The notes beneath the pieces are model-generated. The model was not told the origin of the DNA. It did not search any database and was given only the letters and a program-made list of their open reading frames with translations. A stretch of 64,000 bases of DNA from Escherichia phage JLBYU50, in the sequence record OK272470.1; one strand, given 5' to 3'. The translations under genes were made by a program, and so were the position numbers. Position 1 is the stretch's first letter, and the number at the start of each line of letters is the position of its first letter. This document shows, piece by piece, positions 59,009 to 63,539 of this stretch.

Positions 59009-60001
59009 ATGGGAACACCAAAATCATGGGAACAATATAAAGAAGAATTAACACCTCTTGCTAAAAATCGCAATATTCAAATCCTGGGTTATGTTGGTGA
59101 ATGGAAAGGGAATAAAACAAAACTTGATTTGTTGTGTCATTGTGGGTATAGATGGCAAAGTACAGCTATTACGGACTTTAAACGTGGTGGTGGTTGCCCC
59201 AGTTGTAATTTAGATAGCTTACGCAAACGTATAATCATCCCTGACGATCAACACATACAAGATTTCATGAATACTGGCGCTTTCCAACCAGGAACCATCT
59301 TCATCAATACAGGGGAACGTACTGGAAATAGTGACAGTATTTGGTGTATAAAATGTCCTATTTGCTCATACGACGAATATGTACAAGCTGGAGTATGTGA
59401 TGGTAAGTTTTATTCTACAAAGAGTAGTCTTAAAAACGGGAGTCTCGCTTGTCGTTGTTCTACACGTTATGTGTTTAGCGATCAGCAGTTAACATACCGC
59501 ATGAGAAAGGAGTTGCAGAAAAAAGATTTGATTTTTATTGAATGGGTAGGCAAACCTTCTGTAAGATTAGGTAAGTTTAAATATCTTTGTCTTGTACATG
59601 GGGAGCAGATAGGGAGTGCTAGTAACTTATTAAGCCACGGTCGAGGTTGTCCTATGTGTGCTGGTCATAGTCAGCAGCAGTTATATATTAATATTGTTAA
59701 GGATGATAATATTATAGTTGCTCTTAAGTTTGGTATAGCTAAAGATAGTGATAGGCGATTAAACATTCAAAATAGCCGTAATCTGTTTTTTATGGAACGT
59801 ATTTGTTTATATGATTTTAGCACAGTGAAACAGTGTAAGGCTGCTGAAAGAGCTATAAAGAAAAAATTAAAAACTGGTATTTTAACAGCAAGAGAGTTGA
59901 AAGACGGTCATACAGAAACAGTAAGTGTTTCTGATTTGGAAAATCTTCAAAAAATTATTACACAATATGGTGGCAAATTAGTATATAGTAAGGAGGTGTA
60001 A
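59009..60001 (+). CDS. zinc-ribbon repeat protein with C-terminal T5orf172 (GIY-YIG-like) domain
   Basis: Three Cys modules (CHCGYRWQ...GCPSCN; CPICSYDEY...CRCSTRY; CLVHGEQ...GCPMCAG); C-terminal VALKFGIAKDSDRRLNIQNSRNLFF resembles T5orf172. Confidence 0.5.
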   Translation: MGTPKSWEQYKEELTPLAKNRNIQILGYVGEWKGNKTKLDLLCHCGYRWQSTAITDFKRGGGCPSCNLDSLRKRIIIPDDQHIQDFMNTGAFQPGTIFINTGERTGNSDSIWCIKCPICSYDEYVQAGVCDGKFYSTKSSLKNGSLACRCSTRYVFSDQQLTYRMRKELQKKDLIFIEWVGKPSVRLGKFKYLCLVHGEQIGSASNLLSHGRGCPMCAGHSQQQLYINIVKDDNIIVALKFGIAKDSDRRLNIQNSRNLFFMERICLYDFSTVKQCKAAERAIKKKLKTGILTARELKDGHTETVSVSDLENLQKIITQYGGKLVYSKEV

Positions 60002-60553
60002 ATGCGGATTACTGATAAGTATGTGTTCTTCTTTTCAGCAAAAGATGAATTTAGCAACTGGTATCTATCATCTTTTATTGAACCTTTAGCTCCCAAGTAT
60101 AATAATTCTATTACAAGTTCTGTTGAATTTACTTGTGTGGAACAATATATGATGTGGAGAAAAGCATGTTTATTTTATGATTACAACATTGCATCTTCTA
60201 TTTTAACCGGAGATCTAAGATATACAGGAGAAAAAGAACAAGCATATTATAAGCGACTAGGCAGATTAGTTAAAGATTATGATGAAGATACCTGGACTTC
60301 TTTACGGGAGAAGATTGTCAAACGTGGTTTGTATCTTAAATACACACAAAATGAAGATCTCAAAAATAAACTTATAGCCTACGCAGATAAGGAGTTCGTA
60401 GAGGCAAGCCCTTATGATTCTATTTATGGTATCAAAATGGGGATGTGGGATCGGGACGTGGAAAATAAGGATTGTTGGAAAGGACAAAATCTTTTAGGAA
60501 AATGGCATACAGACCTTGCTGTTTATCTAAAAGCACAATCTGATATTTCCTGA
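60002..60553 (+). CDS. NADAR (YbiA-like) domain protein
   Basis: Collinear with E. coli YbiA: FSNWY, VEQYMMWRKA, RGLYLKYTQNEDLKNKLIAY, FVEASPYDSIYG, GQNLLGKWH; ATG overlaps upstream stop. Confidence 0.75.
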   Translation: MRITDKYVFFFSAKDEFSNWYLSSFIEPLAPKYNNSITSSVEFTCVEQYMMWRKACLFYDYNIASSILTGDLRYTGEKEQAYYKRLGRLVKDYDEDTWTSLREKIVKRGLYLKYTQNEDLKNKLIAYADKEFVEASPYDSIYGIKMGMWDRDVENKDCWKGQNLLGKWHTDLAVYLKAQSDIS

Positions 60554-60772
60554 TATTTTGAAAATTTTTATTTTTATAAAAAGGGGTGTGGGTTTCATGT
60601 ACGGAAATTCACCCTCTGCACAGTATATCCAGAGTAAGTAGTATTCTATACCCTGTTAATAAAGTATTTAATTTGTTTGTTGGACTATGGTATCTGATCT
60701 TTAAAAGGCATACTATCTCTTAACTACTACTTATAACAGAACAGTAAAATCATTTTTATAAAAAGTACAAAA

Positions 60773-60969
60773 TTATTTAAAGTTTTTACAGATTTTTGGG
60801 TACAAATTTTGAAAATGAAAAGTTCAAGTTTGGTCAAAATTATTTAAAGTTTTTGTACGTATTTCTATTCAGATTTTGAAAATGAAAACTTCAATTTTTT
60901 AAAAATTCCCCAGTTTATTTAAAGTTTTTTTGCCTTTTTCCGTAGAAAAATCAAAAATGAAAAGTTCAA
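60773..60969. repeat. three tandem copies of a composite element (ttatttaaagttttt - 21 nt - TTGAAaatgaaaagTTCAA)
   Basis: Unit A at 60773, 60840, 60915; palindromic unit B at 60809, 60876, 60951; A-to-B spacing 36 nt in each copy. Confidence 0.7.
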
Positions 60970-60992
60970 TTTCGTGTTTTTATAGGTGTGTT

Positions 60993-61050
60993 AATGAGAA
61001 TCATTTTCGTTTGTAAATGAGAATCATTAGCAAATGAGAATTTTCTCATT
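60993..61050. repeat. three copies of palindromic site AATGA-gaa-TCATT
   Basis: aatgagaatcatt at 60993-61005 and 61016-61028; extended palindrome aatgagaattttctcatt at 61033-61050. Confidence 0.65.
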
Positions 61051-61286
61051 TAGAGAATAACGCGCAGGGGTGGTGTTTGTCTCGCGCTCCCGTGTCCCCT
61101 CGCCATACAATAAGAATAGCATAACCAACAACAAAAGCAAGCGATTATTTTTATCTTTACATTTCTTTACAAATTTATTTTGGACGAGCTACCGGCGATC
61201 AACCTTCCAACCAGTGCCCCCTGGTATGTTAGCCCCGCCTTTACGCCGTGGGGGTGGCGTTTCCTCTTCTGTATGTAAAACAGTAT

Positions 61287-61320
61287 AAGCCCGATCCCTG
61301 GGCTTGTCAATATTATTTTT
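61287..61320. terminator. stem-loop aagccc-gatccct-gggctt with T-run on + strand
   Basis: Hairpin followed by gtcaatattattttttgtttt on + strand; overlaps 3' end of - strand ORF 61313..61579. Confidence 0.35.
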
Positions 61321-61579
61321 TGTTTTCTTGCCAGGATAGGACACCTAACCAAAAATACATGTCGCCCCGCGCCCCTGGCGGGATCTTGCTTTCCCCGCCG
61401 CCACTGCAAGCCCATAGATAACCATTTACGAACGTATCAAAGTGATCTATCTCTTCCACCTTATGATCGCCCAGGTTGAGAACGGTTTCAACCTTTAAGC
61501 CCGTTGCGCTTGCTACCTGGTGCACCGTGCCGCCTTGCCAGCCCAATGAGTGCATGAGATGTAAAGGAGTATTTGTCAT
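61313..61579 (-). CDS. hypothetical protein encoded in GC-rich islet
   Basis: 88-aa ORF, RBS aaaggg; own sigma70-like promoter; GC content visibly higher than phage average. Confidence 0.45.
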   Translation of the reverse strand: MTNTPLHLMHSLGWQGGTVHQVASATGLKVETVLNLGDHKVEEIDHFDTFVNGYLWACSGGGESKIPPGARGDMYFWLGVLSWQENKK

Positions 61580-61626
61580 GGTATCGCCCTTTCTTTGATG
61601 TGCGCCCTGGTTGGCGCGGTAGAAAG

Positions 61627-61655
61627 ATAATAGCCGTTTCCTTTATAGATAGCAA
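61627..61655 (-). promoter_or_regulatory. sigma70-like promoter for ORF 61313..61579
   Basis: On - strand TTGCTA, 17-nt spacer, TATTAT. Confidence 0.45.
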
Positions 61656-61691
61656 GCAAAAAAGAAATGAAAAAAAGATTAAAAAAAATGG

Positions 61692-61720
61692 TTGACGTTC
61701 CTCACCTGGTAGCGTAGTAT
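61692..61720 (+). promoter_or_regulatory. sigma70-like early promoter
   Basis: TTGACG, 17-nt spacer, TAGTAT, upstream A-tract. Confidence 0.55.
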
Positions 61721-61773
61721 TCATCTTGTCGAGGGGGCAATAGTGCCGCTCATAACAGAAGAGAGAAATAATC

Positions 61774-62046
61774 ATGGCATCATATAGCGCATCAATGATC
61801 GTAACGGGTATCACTGGTAAACCTATGCGCGGTGGCGGATCTTTCGCTAACATCAACATTGACGGGCGTTTATCCCTGGACGCAGCGATCACAGTGGCAC
61901 GGGAAACATTTAAAAAAGAATGTAATTTCAATAAACAAGATTATCTCGGTTTCGCTATTGAAAAAACCGCGCGCTTTGTGGATTATAAAAGCCCGAAAAT
62001 GATCGACACTACACTAAAAGCGCAAGATGTAGCGTTTTTGCTTTAA
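61774..62046 (+). CDS. early protein, unknown
   Basis: 90-aa ORF with RBS gagaga; downstream of promoter. Confidence 0.45.
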   Translation: MASYSASMIVTGITGKPMRGGGSFANINIDGRLSLDAAITVARETFKKECNFNKQDYLGFAIEKTARFVDYKSPKMIDTTLKAQDVAFLL

Positions 62047-62049
62047 GGT

Positions 62050-62077
62050 TTGACACTGAAAAATAATTGGGTAATAT
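62050..62077 (+). promoter_or_regulatory. sigma70-like early promoter
   Basis: TTGACA, 16-nt spacer, TAATAT. Confidence 0.55.
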
Positions 62078-62132
62078 ATACGACATAAGGCGGGGAAATG
62101 GTTTCCCGCCAAATCAAAGAAAGGGTAATGCA

Positions 62133-62495
62133 ATGAGCAAGCAAATCAATACTATCATGTTTAATCTGGTATCTTTCCGCGATGACGTGAAAAACCTTTC
62201 GCGTGATGCAGTGGATGCACGGATCGAAAGCTATCGCACACAGATCGCAACGTTACCGCTGAAACGTGATCAACATGCCGCTAATATGATGCTGGATGCT
62301 ATGATTAAAAAGATGATTCAGTGTGATATTACCCTGGCTTATGAATATGCTGGCGATCTCTTTGTAACATATAGCAAGCCCGTTCCAGGTATGAGCACCA
62401 CGGAAGAATTGCATGCCTTAAATCTGCGACAAGATGCATGGGATAACATGCGCCGTGTTATGGTATGGGTAGAAAGCGGTAAAATTTACGAATAA
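62133..62495 (+). CDS. early protein, unknown
   Basis: Start reassigned to ATG at 62133 (RBS aaaggg); upstream track extension lies inside promoter. Confidence 0.45.
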   Translation: MSKQINTIMFNLVSFRDDVKNLSRDAVDARIESYRTQIATLPLKRDQHAANMMLDAMIKKMIQCDITLAYEYAGDLFVTYSKPVPGMSTTEELHALNLRQDAWDNMRRVMVWVESGKIYE

Positions 62496-62501
62496 AAACG
62501 G

Positions 62502-62530
62502 TTGACATTGCACTAAAACCTGATAAGCTA
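62502..62530 (+). promoter_or_regulatory. sigma70-like early promoter
   Basis: TTGACA at 62502-62507, TGaTAAGCT extended -10-like element. Confidence 0.5.
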
Positions 62531-62573
62531 TCTTAAAGCGGGAACTATTCCCGCTTACATAGGATAAAACTTT

Positions 62574-62720
62574 ATGAAACAATATGTAATGAGTATTCAT
62601 ACCAAAAACGGCGCTACTGTTACGACTCCGGCACGGTTTGCACTTGTAAACCGTTGCAAGAGACTAAAACGAGAGCTAAAAAATAACCGTGCAACGGGCT
62701 TTAAACGCTGGGGAGGATAA
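62574..62720 (+). CDS. small basic protein (48 aa, not in ORF track)
   Basis: ATG at 62574 after aggat RBS; Arg/Lys-rich. Confidence 0.35.
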   Translation: MKQYVMSIHTKNGATVTTPARFALVNRCKRLKRELKNNRATGFKRWGG

Positions 62721-62722
62721 TC

Positions 62723-62983
62723 TTGTTTTTTCTAAAAGTTTTTGATAATGTGATCGCTTTTGAACATGCTACAACGTTCGACCTGGCGAGATACGCTATC
62801 AGGTTTAAAGATAATGTTTATCCCCGTGCTGGCGGCGGTTACACTATTTTTAATCATCGCAACGCGCAACTGACTGATGTAACTAATCCAGATCCTGGAG
62901 TGTATCGCATAGGCTGGCTACCGTCAAAAGACGCTGCAAGCATGTTTAAGGTGTGTAAACTACTAACAGAAGAGGCGAACTAG
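62723..62983 (+). CDS. early protein, unknown (TTG start)
   Basis: RBS ggagga before TTG at 62723. Confidence 0.4.
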   Translation: MFFLKVFDNVIAFEHATTFDLARYAIRFKDNVYPRAGGGYTIFNHRNAQLTDVTNPDPGVYRIGWLPSKDAASMFKVCKLLTEEAN

Positions 62984-62984
62984 C

Positions 62985-63539
62985 ATGGGGCGTGAATATG
63001 TGATCCAGTCCTGGGTAAAGCATGATGCTAATGATCCGCGCATAATACCAGATGACATGATCGATCACATGGTAGGGTATAGCGGGGAGCAGATAGGAAA
63101 TCGAGCGGCAAAGAGCAACGGCAACACCAGGACGCGATCCGTTCGTCCTGGATGGCTGGCGAATGGTAACGCTGACATTGCAAGCGCCGCAGATCCAAGC
63201 GATGACGCTAAAAATAATCCCTTGTACAGCATTGATCCGGCTTTTAAGGTGTTGGAAGAGTATCCCGCTAAATTAGCCGCACTAGATAAGGCATACGAAG
63301 AAAAGCGCATGGCCTGGACTGTATACAACACCGCTAAAATGGTGCTAGATGCAAAACTAATTAAAGCCCAGGAGAAGATCAATAAACTTGTTACCATAGC
63401 GCAAGAGGAAGACCAGGGCGACCAGGAGGAAGAGGAAGAAATCATGCCTACCCTGGAAGAGGAAGAGATCCAGCCATACATGCCGACGGAAGAGGAAAAA
63501 AGACAAGCCTTAAAAAATTATGAAAATTGCATTGTGTAA
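62985..63539 (+). CDS. early protein with acidic C-terminal tail
   Basis: 184 aa; C-terminus QEEDQGDQEEEEEIMPTLEEEEIQ. Confidence 0.5.
   Translation: MGREYVIQSWVKHDANDPRIIPDDMIDHMVGYSGEQIGNRAAKSNGNTRTRSVRPGWLANGNADIASAADPSDDAKNNPLYSIDPAFKVLEEYPAKLAALDKAYEEKRMAWTVYNTAKMVLDAKLIKAQEKINKLVTIAQEEDQGDQEEEEEIMPTLEEEEIQPYMPTEEEKRQALKNYENCIV

Follow-up and report, generated by a model that had tools for sequence, protein, structure and literature searches.

What does the GC-rich patch at 61055-61650 of the Escherichia phage JLBYU50 genome consist of? Here, we analysed a window of 64,000 nucleotides (nt) of this phage (sequence record OK272470.1; all coordinates refer to the strand of the record), in which an initial annotation, made from the letters alone, had proposed that the patch is a horizontally acquired moron or a small structured RNA. 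In the explanation that we favour, and to which as a whole we give a probability of about 0.5, the patch combines a small protein gene, gp224, with a minus-strand structured non-coding RNA gene whose product would be made early and act in trans as a stand-alone RNA. The parts of this explanation differ in strength: comparison of related sequences makes it very probable that the minus-strand RNA gene is real, and the trans-acting mechanism is held tentatively, at a little under even odds. In this explanation the GC-rich patch is not foreign DNA.

The compositional shift itself was borne out by a sliding-window check. GC content is 48.7% at 61055-61650 against a window mean of 37.9% (standard deviation 2.8, 596-bp windows, z = 3.9), and just 0.08% of 596-bp windows have an equal or higher value. 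The left neighbour (60554-61054) has 25% GC, and the right border is soft, with 43.8% GC persisting over 61774-63539. The peak, 62.5%, lies at 61183-61262, which is the core of the structured RNA, and the high GC content there is due to the RNA helices. That the whole islet was acquired as a moron, with its GC content of foreign origin, could be argued from a value 10 points over the genome mean, from gp224 with its own promoter and terminator-like hairpin, and from the unrelated genes that occupy the gp224 slot in related phages. However, 5,426 complete E. coli genomes gave no match, either chromosomal or prophage, the non-coding half, which is among the most conserved DNA of the group, has been kept in two subfamilies and also in Aeromonas phages, and the GC content of 61183-61262 is explained by the helices. 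Since there is no E. coli match, no family in Rfam and no transfer RNA (tRNA), a host-derived islet is unsupported for the non-coding part, for which the moron reading is largely refuted; for the islet as a whole we consider it extremely improbable. Only the small open reading frame (ORF) gp224 fits a moron, having its own promoter, a terminator-like hairpin and a variable slot.

The RNA gene has the following elements.

61310-61282, minus strand: sigma-70 promoter P1(-) of the small RNA; -35 TTGACA at 61310-61305, 17-nt spacer, -10 TATACT at 61287-61282.
61176-61279, minus strand: core of the conserved small RNA ("element B"); the covariance model matches here with 117 bits (E 1e-32), and on no strand but the minus strand.
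61259-61244, minus strand: hairpin P1; CGCC (61259-61256) with GGCG (61247-61244), 4 bp, loop ACCCCCAC.
Between P1 and S2, minus strand: A-rich linker of the RNA, UAAAGGC.
About 61253-61250 with 61236-61233, minus strand: pseudoknot S2; the C-run of the P1 loop pairs with GGGG.
About 61229-61208, minus strand: hairpin H; 5-9 bp, highly variable, with GNRA-like loops in some copies.
61206-61189, minus strand: conserved tail of 18 nt, AAGGUUGAUCGCCGGUAG.

Read 5' to 3', the RNA is made up of a purine-rich leader of 10-20 nt, hairpin P1 with a loop of 7-8 nt, the A-rich linker, S2, the sequence CUARC, hairpin H and the tail. The tail consensus across copies is AAGGUKRAUCGCCGGUAG, in which only the K and R positions vary.

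This element is widely conserved. The stretch 60500-62100 is 96-98% identical to phi92-like coliphages (PHB05, phi92) of the genus Justusliebigvirus, subfamily Stephanstirmvirinae. For its 291-bp part 61040-61330, in which most records annotate no gene, matches were obtained in 236 phage records from two subfamilies. Identity to this part is about 91% in Phapecoctavirus and about 72-75% in Seunavirus (PVP-SE1, GAP31), while Certrevirus (CR3, POP15) and Mydovirus (Klebsiella and Raoultella phages) show 82-85% over the core, 61154-61279 of the window; further matches come from Erwinia, Serratia and Enterobacter phages. With the covariance model, 43 copies were found (39-118 bits), one per phage except for two in Raoultella phage Ro1, and always on the promoter strand. 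The carriers belong to Stephanstirmvirinae, Vequintavirinae, metagenomic phages (one of 147 kb and two further contigs) and Aeromonas Plateaulakevirus (2L372D, 2L372X, 4L372D, 4L372XY, phiA047, PhAER-4, PAc), and the family thus spans at least three groups of large virulent phages. Distant members were retrieved with the 18-nt tail as a search pattern and then matched by the covariance model. When metagenome and bacterial-genome collections were scanned with patterns of 15 and 18 nt, nearly all matches were due to chance, the 15-nt pattern being too short. Two kinds of database label attracted our attention in these comparisons: records under the name "Campylobacter phage A145/A110a" have 96.5% identity with phi92-like coliphages in this stretch, making the host label doubtful, and the "Proteobacteria bacterium" metagenome-assembled contig JAEZZU010000352.1 is phAPEC8-like phage DNA.

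The case for an RNA draws on the way in which paired positions change together. The first alignment, made by MAFFT from 30 distinct minus-strand sequences, was the basis of the covariance model. In this MAFFT-only alignment, with the structure that we propose, 91% of cells are paired compared with 85.5% after shuffling, and covariation is 0.140 against 0.056, a value reached by none of 500 shuffles. The 43-sequence alignment gave 87.5% paired cells against 76.5% and a covariation of 0.254 against 0.082 (again 0 of 500 shuffles), but it was fitted to the model structure, by which the pairing of P1 and H is inflated. In these 43 sequences 12 of the 19 base pairs change on both sides, and a slid control, with partner columns shifted by 1-3, gave covariation of at most 0.057. 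Three of the four pairs of hairpin P1 change on both sides: most copies have CGCC/GGCG, 2L372D has GGAC/GUCU and phiA047 has AGCC/GGCU. The pseudoknot, whose pairs are absent from the covariance search model, occurs in four compensatory versions. Most phages have CCCC/GGGG; Erwinia, NDO71, metagenomic and some Aeromonas phages have CCAA/UUGG; one locus (L165) has CCAG/CUGG, and 2L372D has CCAU/AUGG. Alignment columns 31-108 hold 28 CG and 8 AU pairs, and columns 32-107 hold 7 AU, 1 GC and 1 UA. Both features of an H-type pseudoknot are therefore found, a hairpin stem with compensatory changes and a pairing of its loop with a 3' segment that is likewise compensatory. A long-range helix GCUA/UAGC closing the hairpin domain is compatible with the alignment, without covariation. 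In the helices, 14 G.U pairs stand against 3 A.C mismatches if the RNA is taken from the minus strand, and reading the plus strand swaps these numbers.

It must be added that some of these data speak against an RNA. Folding energies of the window sequence alone, calculated for both strands, do not differ from those of shuffles (z = -0.28, +0.31, +0.42), and besides the inflation mentioned above, the covariation of the MAFFT-only alignment, still significant, is weaker than that of the larger one. The support for the RNA is thus comparative and not thermodynamic, and the window alone proves no RNA. On this comparative footing we judge it very probable that the region encodes a minus-strand RNA folded as an H-type pseudoknot plus a hairpin.

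The promoter strengthens the assignment of the strand. P1(-) scores 11/12, the top promoter match of the region, and in each of the 32 homologues examined a sigma-70 promoter of 9-12/12 with a spacer of 17-18 nt is placed 15-22 nt upstream of the conserved CGCC of hairpin P1. The spacer of P1(-) is itself a GC hairpin, AAGCCC-N7-GGGCTT (61287-61305), and the spacers of the homologous promoters are unrelated GC-rich hairpins. Since hexamers, spacing and position are kept while the spacer is replaced, it can be concluded that the promoter is under selection. Host RNA polymerase would recognise this near-consensus promoter, with a transcript beginning near 61275 and the compact fold beginning about 15 nt downstream of the transcript start. 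The spacer hairpin also lies past the stop codon of gp224, where it is terminator-like. This double role bears on the structured RNA suggested in the initial annotation, which was to lie on the plus strand and to end at a hairpin and T-run at 61287-61320. A plus-strand hairpin is indeed present at 61285-61307, yet the T-run follows only about 8 nt past the stem, and the supposed RNA end is in fact the GC-rich spacer of the minus-strand promoter together with the terminator-like hairpin of gp224. The idea of a small structured RNA stood, by conservation, covariation and the conserved promoter; its strand had to be reversed.

As for coding capacity, the plus-strand ORF at 61070-61288 noted earlier does exist (GTG start, 72 amino acids (aa)), but no reading frame of element B is conserved: hairpin lengths vary by 1, 2 and 4 nt, not in threes, the tail falls in different frames among phage groups, and an AUG is present in one pseudoknot variant only. 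Judged by these sequences, element B is non-coding. With its own promoter and no conserved frame, the locus has the properties of a stand-alone small RNA gene. In phAPEC8 (locus L020, 1535-1876) a GenBank plus-strand coding sequence, phAPEC8_00257, spans the RNA gene, and this annotation is probably spurious.

Known RNA families did not account for the element. The scan against known non-coding RNA families that had been suggested for this locus found none: Rfam 15 gave no match in the 64-kb window at gathering thresholds, and at E values up to 10 over 60500-61800 it gave only chance matches of eukaryotic microRNA and small nucleolar RNA models to AT palindromes. ARAGORN found no tRNA or transfer-messenger RNA in the window or in five related loci. 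A preQ1-I or other riboswitch was rejected because of the lack of an Rfam match and of any minus-strand ORF downstream, except for an inserted HNH gene in Ro1. The RNA resembles the preQ1-I riboswitch, the pistol ribozyme and the T4 gene 32 leader pseudoknot in that a loop pairs just downstream across an A-rich linker, and the pistol ribozyme has a further hairpin after the pseudoknot. It differs from all three in having no Rfam match to E 10, no downstream ORF and different conserved nucleotides.

Two observations bear on whether the RNA has a function of its own. Both in rV5/phi92-like phages and in Aeromonas Plateaulakevirus, promoter and RNA are inherited jointly, and the unit that they form is always oriented against the neighbouring early genes. 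In 2L372D it stands alone between two opposite-strand genes, with its own promoter TTGCTT-17-TATAAT. The Aeromonas loci share no neighbouring proteins with the coliphage loci, and no repeats, palindromes or element A (all described below) were found in them; they do have one GTAAAGA box, which immediately precedes the -35 of their RNA promoter, and, about 150 nt downstream of the RNA, a hairpin terminator shared with a convergent gene. Raoultella phage Ro1 (locus L027, 749-1660, minus strand) has two copies of the RNA gene, with an HNH homing-endonuclease gene inserted between them. Copy 1, the main allele, breaks off inside the tail; next come a ribosome-binding site and the HNH ORF, which lie behind the promoter of this copy. 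Copy 2, an allele of the NDO71 type, is intact, and a separate promoter precedes it. The arrangement looks like a homing event targeting the conserved tail. The presence of the unit in Aeromonas phages without rV5-type surroundings, and of an intact copy beside the damaged one in Ro1, suggests that the RNA has its own function.

A rival reading is that the conserved sequence acts as DNA, as a target of a binding protein or homing endonuclease or as a hairpin in single-stranded DNA, and that the promoter is incidental. The invariance of the 18-nt tail, the position of the HNH gene exactly in it and the mainly Watson-Crick helices, which either strand could form, agree with this. On the other hand, compensatory changes in the pseudoknot and hairpin are unexpected for a binding site in double-stranded DNA, G.U pairs outnumber A.C mismatches on the promoter strand, and the position and quality of the promoter are conserved in every copy. 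We thus regard a signal at the DNA level as quite improbable compared with a transcribed RNA.

In rV5-like phages the RNA gene is located within a conserved non-coding region of about 1.2 kb. Every rV5-like locus has the same layout, in the order repeats, palindromes, element A with a promoter P2(-), and element B with P1(-). In the window the remaining components are as follows.

61154-61161 and 61164-61171, minus strand: GTAAAGA box in two tandem copies (plus strand TCTTTACA), helically phased, upstream of P2(-).
61113-61140, minus strand: second promoter P2(-); -35 TTGCTT at 61140-61135, 16-nt spacer, -10 TATTCT at 61118-61113.
61060-61106, minus strand: element A; GC-rich, its conserved core AGACAAACACC-N5-UGC being flanked by complementary arms.
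60990-61051, no strand assigned: three Fur-box-like palindromes; AATGAGAATCATT at 60993 and 61016, and AAATGAGAA-TT-TTCTCATTT at 61032-61051.
60752-60972, no strand assigned: three AT-rich direct repeats, 67 and 75 bp from start to start, with AT palindromes inside.

P2(-) is weak here (7/12) and was placed by alignment to relatives, in which it scores 8-10/12 with TTGCAA, TTGATC or TTGACC, a spacer of 16-17 nt, and TATATT, TATTAT or GATAAT. The boxes were also considered as a genome-wide promoter motif; this was rejected, as TCTTTACA has 6 matches against 4.2 expected, with no enrichment. Element A lies either where the P2(-) transcript begins or where the P1(-) transcript ends, and its arms, judged by eye, are lineage-specific. 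RNAalifold gave no consistent consensus for it on either strand. A second small RNA is one possibility for this element, the terminator of the first RNA another.

The palindromes resemble sites of the iron regulator Fur. The E. coli Fur box has the consensus GATAATGATAATCATTATC or, in its 7-1-7 form, TGATAATnATTATCA. When the 19-bp consensus was searched with up to three mismatches, the sole match in the 64 kb was 60990-61008 (16/19, with 0.03 expected), and the palindromes of 60990-61051 match the box at this level. One to four palindromes lie at the homologous place in rV5-like loci, and the dyad TGAKAAT-N-ATTMTCA is found there in all of them, the relatives reading TGA(T/G)AAT-C-ATT(C/A)TCA. 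Both the 7-1-7 dyad symmetry of a Fur box and a match to its 19-bp consensus are therefore present in the sequence. Unlike usual Fur boxes, these predicted sites lie in a non-coding region of a virulent phage and not at an iron-uptake promoter, and a phage-encoded protein that binds the palindromes is as possible as Fur. The control region of a virulent phage may thus respond to the iron status of the host, an idea that comes from the presence of Fur-box-like palindromes beside the RNA. In Klebsiella phage K45PH128C2 (locus L006, 1362-1515) GenBank places tRNA-Met and tRNA-Ile over the palindromes and element A; ARAGORN finds none, and these annotations are probably spurious.

In the relatives the palindrome also forms the spacer of a possible plus-strand promoter, TTGAAT-18-CAGAAT. 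Together with a -10-like TGTGTATAAT in the relatives, and with the hairpin and T-run that are present at 61287-61320, it allows for a plus-strand small RNA that ends there, perhaps with a Fur-controlled start, and is antisense to the minus-strand RNA. Its promoter elements are, however, poor in the window (AAGAAT; GCAAAT-17-GAGAAT), the TATAAT-like block can equally be read as the -10 of the better-conserved P2(-), the T-run is displaced from the stem, and A.C mismatches would exceed G.U pairs in its helices. A plus-strand product is in our opinion very improbable, and the minus-strand RNA is preferred.

The AT-rich repeats raise the question of whether the RNA belongs to a replication origin, which is the main rival to a trans-acting RNA. 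In this scheme the tandem minus-strand promoters fire into the Fur-like boxes and AT repeats, and the transcript activates or primes replication through an R-loop or primer. Three repeats with 63-78 bp spacing are found at the same place, with different sequence, in PVP-SE1, CR3 and Klebsiella Mydovirus (1230-1438 in locus L004, 1087-1267 in L005 and 1093-1297 in L006), and the repeat sequence of Vequintavirinae, GGGTCTCGATCG..., contains GATC sites. Number and position are thus kept while the sequence changes between subfamilies, as happens with initiator-binding sites, and the repeats are candidate initiator-binding or origin repeats on the evidence of their arrangement. The constant layout in rV5-like loci fits this scheme, as do the G-rich minus strand (plus-strand GC skew of about -0.2) and the direction of P1(-) and P2(-), which face a region of 25% GC with three repeats. 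Known origins offer parallels. The T7 primary origin consists of tandem promoters and an AT-rich stretch, and T4 oriF and oriG of a promoter and an unwinding element; as in these origins and in ColE1 RNA II/RNA I, one or more promoters here would fire a structured, G-rich transcript toward AT-rich repeats, with a possible convergent plus-strand promoter.

However, the Aeromonas phages keep the promoter and the RNA without repeats, palindromes or element A, and a terminator-like hairpin follows instead; neither a primer nor an R-loop requires a pseudoknot or an invariant 18-nt tail. In contrast to the ColE1, T7 and T4 origins, AT-rich repeats are missing from the Aeromonas copies, a plus-strand partner promoter is at best weak in the window, and the origin here is putative. 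The rV5 genome paper shows only a "non-coding" box on its map, and its skew analysis was uninformative and gave no origin (PMC3606486); no origin has been mapped in this phage group. We consider an origin-associated RNA unlikely, and if the RNA did prime replication, the origin of the phage group would be located.

A further alternative starts from the orientation of the unit. The leftward promoters could collide with, or produce antisense to, rightward read-through into the early genes and serve as an insulator, or the RNA could act in cis on the polymerase that makes it, by analogy with the put antitermination RNAs of phage HK022. It is in accord with such a role that the element lies 10-20 nt from the transcript start in every phage, that its orientation is always against the flanking genes, and that no strong terminator follows the RNA in the window. 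Nothing on the downstream minus strand requires antitermination, though, promoter interference requires no conserved pseudoknot or tail, and put RNAs consist of two stem-loops without a pseudoknot. This makes a cis-acting or insulating role improbable in our view.

We therefore return to a stand-alone RNA acting in trans. As the promoter is of the host type, the RNA would be expected at once after infection, as a molecule of about 100-220 nt. The pseudoknot and hairpin would form a scaffold, and the tail would be the contact surface for a partner, protein or RNA, common to Escherichia and Aeromonas hosts. The tail is identical from Aeromonas to Escherichia phages, which probably indicates an equally conserved partner or a role in the tertiary fold. 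Should it bind a conserved host factor, a new route of host manipulation by lytic phages would be at hand.

Several results do not favour this explanation. There is no clear intrinsic terminator 3' of the RNA within the window, element A followed by UUAUUCU being a weak terminator candidate for the P1(-) transcript. Pairing of the tail with the 3' end of 16S ribosomal RNA (8 bp with one bulge) was rejected, 0.2-0.5 of shuffles being equally good, and so was pairing of the RNA with the leader of the gp224 mRNA (6 + 8 bp here), which is neither significant nor conserved. A search of one literature collection for the RNA, the origin, a transcriptome or small RNAs of these phages found none. In rV5-like phages, moreover, the RNA points into the origin-like region, where a cis role fits equally well. 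Further copies of the complement of the tail, as targets, were sought within the window and none was found. A host-factor screen of an rV5-like phage yielded lipopolysaccharide genes only (PMC7229145).

It is also conceivable, by analogy with known compact RNAs, that the pseudoknot, hairpin and tail (about 85 nt) form a tertiary fold with an activity of its own, either a self-cleaving ribozyme or an aptamer for a ligand or protein; the latter could be, for example, a decoy neutralising a conserved host defence or RNA-processing protein. We find this distinctly unlikely. If true, it would be a new functional RNA class in large virulent phages of Gammaproteobacteria.

Among phage RNAs with which the element can be compared, the lambda OOP RNA is a simple RNA of 77 nt with a hairpin terminator, which acts through its overlap with cII. 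Like OOP and other short sigma-70 phage RNAs, the present RNA is a short non-coding transcript with its own promoter that opposes its neighbours beside a putative origin or control region. The two are not similar in sequence, and the present RNA is set apart by its pseudoknot, covarying hairpin and invariant tail, as well as by the lack of overlap with any gene. A second phage RNA for comparison is pseudo-ToxI of the rV5-like Pectobacterium phage phiTE, a non-coding, pseudoknot-forming 36-nt tandem repeat that mimics a type III antitoxin (PMC3475682). Both are non-coding pseudoknot RNAs from the same phage group. The ToxI-like repeats of phage CB7 adjoin tRNA-Tyr, between homologues of phiTE_202 and phiTE_203, while the present RNA is a single copy at another locus, beside a phiTE_079-like gene in SSBI34. 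Identity with pseudo-ToxI was rejected, given that 61055-61312 contains no tandem repeat and that locus and kind of sequence differ. In the course of this comparison ToxI-like 36-nt sequences were seen to match about 200 phage records, mostly of Klebsiella phages, far beyond the single phiTE case of 2012.

We conclude that the RNA belongs to the phage-encoded small non-coding RNAs, in no known family; its family is unannotated, absent from Rfam 15 and not described in the literature searched. Phages of the rV5/phi92 group are widely used as candidates for therapy and biocontrol, and coordinates and a structural model of the RNA are now available for them.

The other half of the patch is occupied by the small protein gene and its control signals.

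61313-61579, minus strand: gp224, gene of an 88-aa protein (phrog_19316), in a variable gene slot.
61600-61655, minus strand: promoter-like site of gp224, TTGCTA-17-TATTAT (61655-61627), and 5'-leader hairpin (about 61617-61602).
61692-61720, plus strand: divergent early promoter, TTGACG-17-TAGTAT, serving 61774-62046.

These elements agree with what had been read from the letters alone: the 88-aa minus-strand ORF, with an ATG start, is phi92 gp224, its sigma70-like promoter scores 9/12, the leader hairpin is GCGCC-AACCAG-GGCGC, and the divergent promoter was recovered as well. The 76% identity (90% similarity) to a homologue in UPEC06 identifies gp224 as a real gene. Its N-terminal 45 aa are common to phrog_33408 of SSBI34, and no Pfam, PDB or PADLOC match was found. 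In other phages the slot contains phrog_33408 (SSBI34), DUF7170 (PVP-SE1, Ro1, Klebsiella phages) or a different small unclassified ORF (KP13-16), or is empty (CR3, POP15). The gene thus combines the properties of a moron, namely its own promoter, a hairpin past the stop codon and variable presence among relatives; as to a foreign origin from the host, no E. coli genome matches it, and its matches are phage families only. A 12-nt near-repeat, GTGCCCCCTGGT (61214-61225) and GTGCGCCCTGGT (61600-61611), is shared by hairpin H of the RNA and the gp224 leader hairpin; the pairing between the two RNAs that it would imply is not significant.

The divergent promoter is identical in sequence in phAPEC8, and the plus-strand gene that it serves, 61774-62046, is a homologue of phi92 gp226 (phrog_8099). 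In phi92 (locus L001, 4519-4800) an extra small gene, gp225, which is absent from the window, lies between gp224 and gp226, which again points to a hot spot of gene gain and loss around the divergent promoters. To the left of the control region, an endonuclease-like ORF at 59009-60001 (CapR homology and T5orf172 domains, phrog_681) abuts a NADAR-domain gene at 60002-60553, the protein of which matches the PADLOC candidate defence-system model PDC-M42C (E 2e-34).

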